This document shows, one piece after another, positions 6,058 through 10,328 of a DNA stretch of 64,000 nucleotides (its first letter is position 1; each line of letters begins with the position of its first letter). Made by a program: the position numbers and the translations under genes. This DNA comes from Mytilus edulis. Taxonomy: Eukaryota. Location of the stretch: NCBI RefSeq assembly GCF_963676685.1, contig NC_092346.1, forward strand, positions 68,820,001-68,884,000. Direction: 5' to 3'. The notes below the pieces were generated by a model. The model saw only the letters and a program-made list of their open reading frames with translations. It had not been told where the DNA came from and ran no database searches.

Positions 6058-9000
6058 ATGGGACAGCTAATATCAAAGTTATATACACTAGTGTCAGGAT
6101 TATCATGTTCAGTGGCAGCAAATATTGTGATGCTGGGTTTGGATTCGTCAGGTAGACATTAATTTATAATTTAATGCAGAATCATTATTTTAAGTTCATG
6201 ATATGCAACACACTTTCAACAAACAGAAACAATTGCCTATGCTTATGCGATTTATACATGGTCCCATATAAACGGAACTCCCAAAAGCATAGAGGGAGGC
6301 CAGCAGCAGTGGATAGTAGTCTCATTGACAATCATATCACATATCCTTATTTTCATAAAAAAAACTCATAATATAACGAGTCGAAAAGCATCACCTACCG
6401 TGTTTAATTGACGTCTTACTTATCTGCATATTTTTTCAATTATATTTCATCAATTGTTGCAAATTATCCTGTAACTGCTGTATCCTATTAACATAATAAA
6501 CAGGAGGGTTTGCAAAAAGGCTTTAACCTACTATCCATTCCATTTTAGATCCCAAAAGAATGTTATAGTTTTCTTTAACTCGATTTACAGGAAAAACAAC
6601 TATACTGTACAAGATCAAACTAAATGAAACCGTTAAAACATTACCTACTGTAGGATTTAATGTAGAAACAGTGGGACCAATCAAAGGAATCAGCCTCACA
6701 GTATGGGACATTGGTGGTCAAGAAAAAATCAGACGGTTATGGCAGCACTACTTGAAAAATACAGACGGTAAAACTCTTAAAATGATTAAATTGAGAGACA
6801 ATCAACAAGTAGTTAAATATATAGTTCATAAGATAAGATTAACATCCAAACCCATAGTAAGAACCGTGAACGCTTCAACTAAAAGGCAGACAAAAAAGAG
6901 GGTTACCTATATATGAGAAAAACCTGAATTATATACATTACGAATTTAGATATTCAAGCAAAAAAGAATTAAATAGGTTAAATTGAAGTTTAAAAATAAA
7001 ATTGCTTAAAAATGGCATCATTTATGTTTGTGGCGACTATAAGACGGAAATAAACTGAGACTTAAAAAATCATGAAACGGAAGATCTAAAAACAAGCTAT
7101 CTACTAAACAGAAATGGTTTACTCCATATACAGTGCTTTACTAACAAACTAACAAACAAACAAACAAACATATATCCGACCTAAAATATATGAAAATAAC
7201 GAACAACTCTTGAAAGTGACAAAGGCACTCCATGAAGAACGTGTAGCGAGAGGTTATGTATGAGTTGTATTTTTAACTGATGATTATTGTAGTAAACTTA
7301 TGAATTGCCAAAGAAAAAAATTAGTGTAGGAAATACATTGATTATTTTTTATTTATTTTACAGGACTTATTTACGTTGTTGACAGCAATGACAAAGACCG
7401 ACTATGCGAAGCCAGAGAAGAACTTTATGGTATATTGAATAGTACGAATTTGAGAAATGTGCCAGTGGTTGTTATAGCAAACAAACAAGATATGCCTGGT
7501 ATGCTTATTTCCTTTCATTTCATTATCTTACCCAATTTTATTTTTTACAGAGTTTGTCTTTAGTGCCTTGTAGAGACAGTAGAGTGCCTCCCCGTGCCTA
7601 AGGTTTATGCTCTTATATTTTTGAAATACTAAGGCTTTTCTACCTCAGGCATAGATTACCTTGCTGAATTTGGCAAAACATTTAGGCATTTTGGTCCTCA
7701 ATGTTCTTCAACTTCGTACTTTATTTGGCCCTTTTAAATTTTTTTTGGATTCGAGCGTCACTGATGAGTCTTTTGTAGACGAAACGCGCGTCTGGAGTAT
7801 ATACAAAATTTAGTCCTGGTATCTATGATGAGTTTATTTACTACCACTTGGTCGATGCCACTGCTGGTGAAGATTTATTTCCCCGGGGGTATCACCAGCC
7901 CAGTAGTCAGCACTTTTTGTGCTGACATGAATTATCATTGATATGGTTATATTTACAAATTAACTGTTTACAAAATTTAGAATTTTTGAAATACTAAGGC
8001 TTTTCTACCTGAGGCATAGATTACCTCAGCTGGATTTGGCAAAACTTTTAGGAATTTTGGTCCTCAATGCTCTTCAACTTCTTACTTTATTTGGCCCTTT
8101 AAAACTTTTTTTTTGATTCGAGCGTCACTGATGAGTCTTTTGTACACGACACGCGCGTCTGGTGTATATACAAAATTAAGTCCTGGTATCAATGATGAGT
8201 TTATTTATTATACTAGATGATGGAGTGTGTGTCTGAGCGAGTACTTCTCTATGTTCATTACTTTAGGAATATTTATCAAAAAGTAGTATTTTAGTATTCA
8301 ACCCCATTCATCTATTTAGTCAGACGTCACTCGCTACCTTGATATACCCTATCTTTCAATAAATTTGTCGGGTAATTTATGACAAATAGCGTTTGACGTT
8401 TTTAGCCGAACAGCTTTCTCTTTTTCACATTATTCAATTTACTGTGTGCTGGCTCATATTCTGGACGCCAGTCTTTGCTCCTTTCTAATAAAATCCACTT
8501 ACCAAAAAACAAATATGAAGCTTAGAAATGGAAAAATATTAAATACTAAACTCGTTCAAAGGTTATCTACACGTCTCAATCTTCGAAATCGCTTATCTAA
8601 AAATACTACCATCGCTAACATTTTTAACAATAAAAATCGTGGTTACCCTTCTATCGATAAGTGTCATGCCAAAAAATGACTTATATGTCCCCGTCTTTCC
8701 ACCAACAATACGATATGGTCCACGTTTAATGGTCGCACATTTTCTTTAAATTTTGAAACTGATATAACTGGAAAACCATTTTATTTACTCACATGAAACA
8801 AACCGGGATGCGGTATTCAGTACGTAGGTGAAACTGGACGATATTTATCTAAACGCACGCAAGAACACCTGTATCGTTTTAAAAGACCCAATAAATTCAA
8901 ACGTATCATTTATCAGTATCTTAAGAAGCACTATCATCAGACAGTCTACCCTCTCGGTCTTAATGATAATATCATGGGAATTGGTAATATATCAAGAACC

Positions 9001-10328
9001 GATTATGTTAACATTTTGGATATAGTTTCTAAAACTGTTTTTTTAATGTATTGTTATGCATTTACTTTTCTATATTGGCTTGAGGTATAGGGGGAGGGTT
9101 GAAATCTCAGAAACATGTTTAACCCCGCCGCAATTTTGCGCCTGTCCCAAGTCAGGAGCCTCTGGCCTTTGTTAGTCTTGTAAGATTTTAGTTTCCTACA
9201 TGTATAATTCGGAGTTTAGTATGACGTCCACTATCACTGAACTAGTATACATATTTCTTAAGGGACCAGCTGAAGGACGCCTCCGGGTGCGGGTTTTTTT
9301 CGCTACATTGAAGACCCATTTGTGGCCTTCGGCTTTTGTCTGCTCTATGGTCGGGTTGTTGTCGCTTTGTATTTGGTTTTGATGTTATATTTGTTTTTCT
9401 CGTGGGATTTTGTCGGATGCTTAGTCCGTTTCTGTGTGTGTTACATTGCAGTGTTGTGTCGTTGTTCTCCTCTTATATTTAATGCGTTTCCCTCAGTTTT
9501 AGTTTGTTACCCCTATTTTGTTTTTTGTCAATGGATTTATGAGTTTGAACAGCGGTATACTACTGTTGCCTTTATTTGACACATTCCCCATTTCCTTTCC
9601 AAATTTTATTATATTTGATGAAAAAATAATTTATATCGACAAAAGAAAAAATGGAGTAAGAATATGGAAATTATTCATTATTTCTGTCAAATTTATTTTA
9701 TGTTTCGCAGAGGTCATATATATTATGTTGCTGTAAAATATAAAAACAAAAGTCAAACACGTACATATGTAACACAATTTTACATGTCGATCGTCAAAAA
9801 TATGTTCGATTAAATCATGAAATTTTCAATATATATTCATTTCAACGACAACATATCAAATCAAAATAAATACAAAATCGAATTCGAAAGTGATTTACAA
9901 GAGAAGATGCAGAAAAAACACAGTAATTTACATAAGCACATTTAAAACGATGACAAATAAGCACATAATCGGCGTGCTGACCAGAGTATATAGCATTGAT
10001 TTCATTTGTCTACGTTTATATATGTATAAATTACATTGATAAAATTGCTCATTGTTATTAATAGTATTTACTTTGAAAACAAAAAAAGGTATACGAACAA
10101 CTTTATTTACTCATTTGTGTTATCATTGTAATTACAGATGCCTTGGATCCTTCGATAGTTGCAGGTTGTTTAAATTTAGATAGAATGAAAAAAAGAAAAT
10201 GGAAAATTCAAGGAGCCTGTGCAAAAACAGGGACTGGTTTATTTGAAAGCATGAAAGCAATGAGCGAGTTAATAAAAAGTTACAAAAATGAGAGCTTATT
10301 AGAAGAAAACACAAATCAGTGTAAATGA
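6058..10328 (+). CDS. ARF/ARL small GTPase paralogue A (198 aa, ARL11/ARL14-like interswitch), exons 6058-6151, 6591-6767, 7364-7498, 10138-10328
   Basis: Spliced ORF MGQLISK...GLDSSGKTT...PTVGFNVE...[10 protein letters not shown]...NKQD...CAKTG; all introns GT-AG, phase 1; total 597 nt in frame. Confidence 0.92.
7618..8207 (+). mobile_element. Retrozyme-type tandem repeat (~1.6 units, 367-nt period) with type I hammerhead ribozymes
   Basis: Direct repeat with CTGATGA cores at 7761 and 8128; homologous copies lie on the minus strand at ~18040-18325, ~31390-31560, ~40260-40410 and ~54912-55565. Confidence 0.85.
7755..7798 (+). ncRNA. Type I hammerhead ribozyme, intact core (predicted cleavage after C7792)
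   Basis: GCGTCA-CTGATGA-GTCT-tttgt-AGAC-GAAA-CGCGCG-TC-TGGAGT: stem I, conserved core, stem II, palindromic stem III and GUC site. Confidence 0.85.
8515..9030 (+). pseudogene. 5' fragment of Naiad-type Penelope-like element ORF: zinc knuckle plus GIY-YIG endonuclease with two in-frame TGA codons (putative Sec)
   Basis: One frame from ATG 8515: ...DKCHAKK*LICPRL...[28 protein letters not shown]...[15 protein letters not shown] at 8677-8679 and 8794-8796; internally deleted. Confidence 0.8.
9035..9610 (+). mobile_element. 3' tail of the same Penelope-like family, interrupted by another repeat (~9366-9577)
   Basis: Matches the reverse complement of the RT-linked tail at ~51677-52040 (AACCCCGCCGC...TCCCAAGTCAGGAGCCTCTGGCC...ACATTCCCCATTTCC). 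Confidence 0.75.

Follow-up and report, generated by a model that had tools for sequence, protein, structure and literature searches.

Are two in-frame TGA codons in a decayed piece of mussel DNA the result of that decay, or are they what remains of a gene for a selenoprotein? This question is raised by positions 8515–9030 (+) of a 64,000-nucleotide (nt) stretch of Mytilus edulis contig NC_092346.1 (assembly GCF_963676685.1, positions 68,820,001 to 68,884,000), which at its full length we call the window. An initial annotation, made from the letters alone, had described there a retroelement endonuclease (EN) with two UGA codons at zinc-ligand Cys positions and had proposed a selenoprotein transposon. 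We conclude, with a probability of roughly 0.88, that the stretch is what remains of a Naiad Penelope-like retrotransposon, a dead copy with internal deletions, and that the family's intact copies likely make a single protein of EN and reverse transcriptase (RT) with four selenocysteines (Sec). The proposal of a selenoprotein transposon therefore likely holds for the family, while the window copy itself is a dead remnant.

The frame at 8515–9030 (+) has 172 codons and, as had been noted, exactly two stops, both TGA (8677–8679 and 8794–8796), in the contexts C-x4-U-x2-C and LT-U-x4-CGIQYVGET (U, TGA read as Sec). The GIY-YIG domain does lie at the N-terminus of the open reading frame (ORF). Two is the correct number for this frame, but the family has four TGAs, at codons 55, 86, 97 and 522; codon 86 reads GGA here and codon 522 has been deleted. 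When 29 homologues were aligned, Cys was found at the four columns in 25, 19, 25 and 25 of them, respectively, and at the two columns of the window TGAs it accounted for 25/25 and 25/26 of the homologues with a residue there. The role of these positions as zinc ligands is putative, the finger being described as tentative in the source paper (Craig et al. 2021, PMC8557442; here and below we refer to the accessible part of that paper). The parts of the window copy are as follows.

7533–9610 (+): the whole Naiad copy, within the last intron of an Arf-like gene
7533–7619 (+): 5' tip, 96.6% identical to the start of the full-length unit
7620–8205 (+): insertion in the Naiad 5' untranslated region (UTR), flanked on both sides by TATT: a retrozyme-like tandem repeat that bears a hammerhead
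8206–8514 (+): the remaining 5' UTR
8515–9039 (+): remnant of the N-terminal GIY-YIG endonuclease ORF (intact amino acids 1 to ~217), from which 9 and 117 nt are deleted in frame
8677–8679 (+): TGA 55, likely Sec, at the second Cys of C-x4-C-x2-C
8770–8772 (+): GGA, by decay in this copy, in place of the family's TGA 86 at the Cys position ahead of the GIY-YIG motif
8794–8796 (+): TGA 97, likely Sec, at the first Cys of the CCHH motif
9041–9369 (+): distal 3' UTR, abutting the EN remnant at a private deletion of ~2.63 kb
9090–9156 (+): Twister-P5-like RNA motif (RF02684) in the tail, candidate self-cleaving ribozyme
9370–9574 (no strand assigned): unrelated repeat of ~205 bp inserted close to the 3' end, with TTTG on both sides
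9575–9610 (+): last 36 nt of the element

The 9-nt deletion adjoins codon 86, and the ~2.63 kb deletion took out the linker, the RT, TGA 522, the stop codon and the selenocysteine insertion sequence (SECIS), whose absence from this copy had been stated correctly. This copy had also been described as fused to the same 3' tail family as the SECIS-bearing RT copy at 51677. There was no fusion of two elements: the window pieces are colinear with one Naiad unit that has suffered internal deletions of 117 nt and ~2.63 kb, and the flanks of the 7620–8205 insertion are contiguous in the intact element. The kinship of the two tails is real at the level of the family, but they belong to different subfamilies (84% identity in the tail); the window copy is 93% identical to a young subfamily and 90% to an older one. 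A non-autonomous deletion subfamily was considered as well and rejected, the large junction being matched once in the genome when up to one mismatch was allowed. Without RT, SECIS and one of the TGAs, the window copy cannot make the protein and is an ordinary dead remnant; because the RT and the SECIS are gone, ribosomes on it would halt at its first TGA.

Intact copies exist elsewhere. A peptide search of the mussel's own genome (1.37 Gb; the window lies at C3:68.82 Mb) gave 2,369 candidates, of which 150 were scored; all were 89–99% matches, and 146/150 had three TGAs in this stretch. At 16 young loci (L031–L046) we found 17 frames that run without interruption for 1002 codons, counted from the first Met, each with TGA at 55, 86, 97 and 522 and a final TAA, together with two broken copies. 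The 17 copies of this young subfamily differ from their majority by 0.24%. The unit is ~4.03 kb long and is often arranged in tandem or behind a partial 3' copy. In the intact protein, C-x4-U-x2-C (C50-U55-C58) is followed by the GIY-YIG core with the CCHH motif (U97-C102-H121, second His variable), a KR-rich block (RKNRSHGRRKNRNQRK), a CxC motif (C385-x-C387), a DKA motif with U eight residues after it, and the RT. The catalytic R, H, E and N of the GIY-YIG endonuclease are invariant in 22 aligned ENs. A model of the whole protein (pLDDT, the predicted local distance difference test, 81) had telomerase RTs as its top fold matches (E 1.5e-10), and a model of the EN only (pLDDT 85) was closest to the GIY-YIG domains of I-TevI and UvrC (E 0.006–0.05). 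A sequence search of the PDB did not name the domains, its sole match being I-TevI (E 0.18). The element is a Naiad, since its feature set matches the diagnostic features given in PMC8557442.

To count codons at the four sites, patterns free at the codon itself were run on the genome; they required exact flanks, so old copies are under-counted. They matched 412 (site 55), 446 (86), 488 (97) and 456 (522) times, and among the first 100 listed per site TGA was present in 93, 97, 96 and 98, respectively. Sites 55 and 97 were also counted over the whole genome: TGT, TGC or TGG was absent from all 412 matches at site 55 and present in 8 of the 488 at site 97 (5 TGC, 1 TGT, 2 TGG), so that Cys codons amount to 0/412 and 6/488. 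The proposal that the TGAs are Sec codons and not decay is thus upheld, because the same TGA is shared by most genomic copies, near-fixed where TGT or TGC might have prevailed, and because full-length copies with this EN do carry a SECIS. Sub-lineages with Cys at 97 or Leu at 55 were looked for with four copies each; these share no derived bases beyond the site and are scattered on the tree.

To assess selection, we compared the two subfamilies (92.6% alike) by their majority codons, taken from 17 copies for the young and 34 for the older one. Between the subfamilies all four TGAs are kept and there are 146 synonymous and 64 replacement differences, a ratio of replacement to synonymous rates (dN/dS) of 0.097, with values of 0.05–0.11 in every segment. 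For codons 56–195, which lie past the first TGA and before the next Met, dN/dS was 0.05 (19 synonymous vs 4 replacement, p 2e-10). Re-initiation does not explain this result, because the next Met comes only after these codons. Among the older copies, variants shared by at least three had a dN/dS of 0.11, compared with 0.58 for private variants. As judged from these codon comparisons, purifying selection acts through the TGAs.

It could be argued that the family is non-autonomous, with the TGAs as nonsense mutations, and is copied in trans by Cys-type Naiads, perhaps with an RT made from an internal start. Intact Cys-type Naiads are indeed found in this genome, and the window copy itself is decayed. 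Such a family, however, would hardly keep dN/dS at 0.05–0.11 everywhere, including codons 56–195 beyond the reach of a downstream Met; its four stops are all TGA, all at Cys positions and common to families ~50% identical; and a conserved, covarying SECIS exists. Already contradicted by selection, by the sharing of TGAs among relatives and by SECIS covariation, copying in trans is in our view extremely improbable.

We therefore return to decoding of the TGAs as Sec, for which a SECIS is needed in the 3' UTR. The Rfam model SECIS_1 matched ~55 nt after the TAA stop, usually with 30.9–32.3 bits and in one copy with 41.4 bits, over the cut-off of 35. The motif consists of AUGA, an AAA bulge, an apical mini-stem and UGAU. 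Within this genome SECIS_1 was found at 4/4 loci of the TGA family vs 0/8 loci of two Cys-coding Naiad families. A 31-nt core of the SECIS has 4,926 exact occurrences in the genome, and therefore at least 4,926 copies, vs the 412–488 EN matches. Five tRNA-Sec genes scored over the cut-off. Four of them, with identical scores, are clustered at C7:74.8–75.4 Mb and one is at C1:49.15 Mb; another tRNA-like unit, slightly below the cut-off, forms a tandem array with a period of 895 bp at C10:14.40–14.44 Mb.

The same link between TGA and SECIS was seen in relatives. A search for RT homologues covered proteins of 264–840 amino acids, and among the best 120 of 3,195, 45 begin at positions 523–531 and none at 513–522, as expected when a stop is called at DKA+8. 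At the level of DNA we collected 109 public loci (the best 80 of 469 metagenome matches and 29 others). TGA was present at one or more of five conserved Cys sites in 27/109, with RT identities of 48–100%, and Cys at these sites in 49/109, with RT identities of at most 44%. Together with the query, 26 of the 27 TGA loci make 20 clusters at 90%, and the pattern varies among related families (UUUUU, CUUUU, CUUCU, CCUCU). Nearly all in-frame TGAs of these loci lie on conserved Cys columns, with exceptions at 285, 569, 819 and 922. The first Cys of the CxC motif is TGA in L125, L128–L132, L136, L138 and L202–L205, a Sec site that is new with respect to those given in PMC8557442; L125 and L136 have TGA at all five conserved sites, more than any Naiad published there. 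Contigs filed as bacterial that carry TGA loci are probably animal contaminants, as that paper also notes. No relative was found in a search of viral contigs.

SECIS_1 matched 16/24 TGA loci with a tail vs 0/20 Cys loci. When 11 SECIS, picked by their match to the Rfam structure (a choice that favours pairing), were aligned without a structure model, 92% of the pairs were kept and 15/18 pairs had double-sided changes; this was reached in 0/500 shuffles, and slid controls gave 40–49%. A model built from these 11 recognized 12/15 held-out TGA loci (three near-duplicates of training sequences, one weak) and none of 35 distant Cys loci with a tail of at least 100 nt. It also matched L145, which has Cys at 522, is 68% identical with its EN not visible, and stands near the TGA group. 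A match in the Cys-type L217 (27 bits) was not counted, as it lies inside the N-terminal coding region and has no AUGA. In the trees, one of which took in 46/89 sequences, the TGA loci form one group with moderate support (FastTree 0.52; SH-aLRT, an approximate likelihood ratio test, 82, or 98.9 with the fragment L199, whose codons are unseen). The reading of the TGAs as Sec codons is strengthened both by purifying selection through them and by the TGA state matching SECIS across relatives.

Could RNA editing or a variant genetic code instead cause UGA to be read as Trp or Cys? Four public homologue proteins have W at DKA+8, their DNA not being visible. In three RNA runs from a related sample, reads of both strands covered all 30 bins of the element; one of the three runs had more sense than antisense reads over the 5' part. 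At TGA 55 the G was kept in 137/144 reads, and none of the 40 listed read differences, which leave aside 20 weaker ones, altered the A in any of the three EN TGAs. A run of small RNAs, with 272 reads mapped, was little informative. Furthermore, the Cys-type Naiads of this genome use TGT and TGC and have TGA only in their broken copies, Trp is no substitute for these Cys residues, and the presence of a SECIS follows the TGA state. Editing or a variant code has, in our estimate, next to no chance of being the explanation.

A closer alternative accepts that the UGAs are decoded through the SECIS but sees them as a throttle on translation, with no part in chemistry and with Cys often being the residue inserted. 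In mammalian thioredoxin reductase, Cys is inserted at Sec codons under low selenium. Every site flips between TGA and TGT/TGC among related families, so Cys serves at each of them in one family or another; the same genome has intact Cys-only Naiads; and the five copies with TGC at site 97 point the same way. A throttle could, however, sit anywhere, yet the TGAs stay on conserved Cys columns apart from the four exceptions given above, and reversion to Cys never took over in the TGA family. We consider this explanation unlikely.

If the UGAs are Sec codons in function as well, the host's Sec machinery would bind the SECIS and decode the four of them, giving one selenoprotein EN-RT in which Sec would replace Cys in the putative metal-binding motifs of the EN and behind DKA, as metal ligand or redox residue. 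The protein would nick DNA and reverse-transcribe its own RNA (target-primed reverse transcription). Reverse transcription would mostly end early, leaving about ten SECIS-bearing 3' ends per copy that reaches the endonuclease, and the need for four decodings would tie protein output to selenium supply. The Twister-P5-like motif in the tail may process the element's RNA; its match at 9090–9156 scores 23.5 bits, short of the 37.6 set as cut-off (E 0.004 with 201 nt searched). Similar motifs were found near 51935 and 42272 (−) and, with different outer stems, in the relatives L146 and L206.

Several observations weigh against decoding as Sec. The usual SECIS score of 30.9–32.3 bits is below the Rfam cut-off, folding is modest (z −1.5 to −1.7), and in the young subfamily one pair of helix II is broken. 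No Rfam SECIS match was obtained in 8/24 TGA loci with tails, and 3/15 held-out TGA loci did not match the model built from 11 SECIS. Among the first 100 listed copies, 6 have TTA (Leu) at site 55, across subfamilies, as do 7 RNA reads, and TGC occurs at site 97 in 5/488. The neutral control is imperfect, since private mutations have a dN/dS of 0.58 and not 1. Pfam matched neither GIY-YIG nor RT in the intact protein, and the fold matches of the EN all have E > 0.001. The RNA reads derive from many copies, a related sample and both strands, with sense strong in 1/3 runs. Sec insertion, metal binding and activity are predictions for the family, drawn from nucleotide sequence.

Further pieces of the family in the window, and the host gene of the copy, are listed below.

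51677–53191 (−): 5'-truncated copy of the older subfamily, with C-terminal RT (frameshifted) and the whole 3' UTR
52199–52263 (−): SECIS of that copy (AUGA, AAA, apical mini-stem, UGAU); SECIS_1 32.3 bits, cut-off 35; fold z −1.5
42046–42653 (−): an old 3' end from the same lineage (74%); its SECIS, at 42520–42582, has decayed
54011–54279 (−): short 3'-end fragment of the family
19193–19334 (−): short fragment in which 50 nt of 5' UTR adjoin the element's last 90 nt
6569–6913 and 10134–10301: exons of the Arf-like gene, with Pfam Arf matches
7499–10137 (+): last intron of the Arf-like host gene, with the Naiad copy in sense; splice sites read from the sequence

The window holds a cluster of Arf/Arl-like small GTPase paralogues, at least five in number (~5900–10300, 18400–19700 (−), 24000–29800, 43600–48200 and 55700–56800), as seen by a motif scan and, on two exons, by Pfam Arf. 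The hammerhead of the window copy (Hammerhead_1 at 7755–7798, 28.4 bits, not reaching the cut-off of 34) is part of the inserted repeat and not of the Naiad, and in the full-length copy L032 no hammerhead ribozyme was found at E up to 1. Hammerhead-bearing, retrozyme-like repeats occur at 7617–8210, 18045–18314, 55138–55568, 31380–31555 and 40259–40409, three of them with Hammerhead_1 scores of 28–31 bits; mussel retrozymes have already been published (PMC7229834). A retrotransposon with long terminal repeats has an open gag-pol frame of 1212 codons at 60363–63998 (+), running past the window end, with protease, RT, RNase H and integrase in a Gypsy-like order. Self-comparison gave palindromes (110–185 bp) and tandem repeats at 53777–53954, 14878–15062, 49006–49114, 10314–10578 and 45402–46261.

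Judging by the 19 further TGA clusters and the pile-up of protein starts, annotation pipelines break these proteins up, and the clade is more extensive than its published part. Going further, and only tentatively, selenoprotein Naiads might be one old and widespread aquatic clade, hidden from annotation by its UGAs, with five Cys sites flipping between Sec and Cys; the mussel transposon might then be set by dietary selenium and have scattered ~5,000 working SECIS. If this is true, these ~5,000 SECIS, more than 100 per host selenoprotein gene, could recode UGA stops of the host or compete for its Sec machinery. Craig et al. (2021, PMC8557442) left open the rarity of selenoprotein Naiads, the importance of Sec and the seeding of SECIS into host genes. 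The mussel family makes these three questions testable, being young, with Cys-only Naiads as controls in the same genome and at least 4,926 SECIS cores.

How does the family compare with Naiads already known? Craig et al. described selenoprotein Naiads in two clams and two spiders, their selenoprotein status being a prediction, and for mussels their paper lists Cys-type Naiads only. We found no further report of selenoprotein Naiads, nor of a mussel Sec family, in the literature as covered by titles and abstract openings, with most subscription journals outside that coverage. Published Naiads have units of 3.4–4.4 kb, partial tandems (pLTR) and heavy 5' truncation, with which the unit size, tandems, partial upstream 3' copies and SECIS:EN imbalance seen here agree; they are described as being without canonical hammerheads, and their EN has a CX2-5CxxC finger and a CCHH motif with a variable second His. 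We compared the published proteins by eye, and tree placement was inferred from the shared U-x4-C spacing, which is present in all TGA loci whose EN was printed and in the clam elements Naiad_Scon and Naiad_Mmer but not in the spider families.

The mussel Cys-type elements Naiad_Mgal and Naiad_Mcor share clade and architecture with the TGA family, but they have Cys codons and a first finger five residues longer and belong to a distant branch. A family nearly identical by eye to Naiad_Mgal is present in this genome (L112, L115, L116), and SECIS_1 found no SECIS in this Naiad_Mgal-like Cys family. A second intact Cys-type family of ~1004 amino acids (L109, C3:82380800–82385800; L111, C6:26082600–26087600) is by eye nearer to oyster and ark-shell Naiads than to Naiad_Mgal and is not on the paper's mussel list. 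The spider elements Naiad_Sdum and Naiad_Smim also have several Sec, Naiad_Sdum with U at the second Cys of the first finger as well; unlike the mussel family, they have C-x2-C spacing, Cys in the CCHH motif and a reduced insertion-in-fingers domain (IFD). They are a separate lineage, and the shared first-finger site is therefore convergent.

The closest resemblance is to the clam elements Naiad_Scon and Naiad_Mmer. Like these, the mussel family has a GIY-YIG domain at the N-terminus, an RT and a SECIS behind the stop, UGA at the Cys before the GIY-YIG motif, at the first CCHH Cys and at DKA+8, and the T-U-N-x-P-x-C spacing, which exceeds that of other Naiads by two residues; a gapless comparison by eye with Naiad_Scon gave identity at about half of 78 EN residues. 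Unlike them, it has one UGA more, placed at the second Cys position of C-x4-C-x2-C, and all four are thus on conserved Cys, and its SECIS stands ~55 nt behind the stop (published, 1–21) and has an apical mini-stem, type II-like (published, type I). The motif argument made there is here extended by selection on codons and by covariation of the SECIS, and the value of our results is in this evidence at the level of the family and in the apparent breadth of the clade. The mussel family is thus a further family of the published clam type, within a class that was already known.

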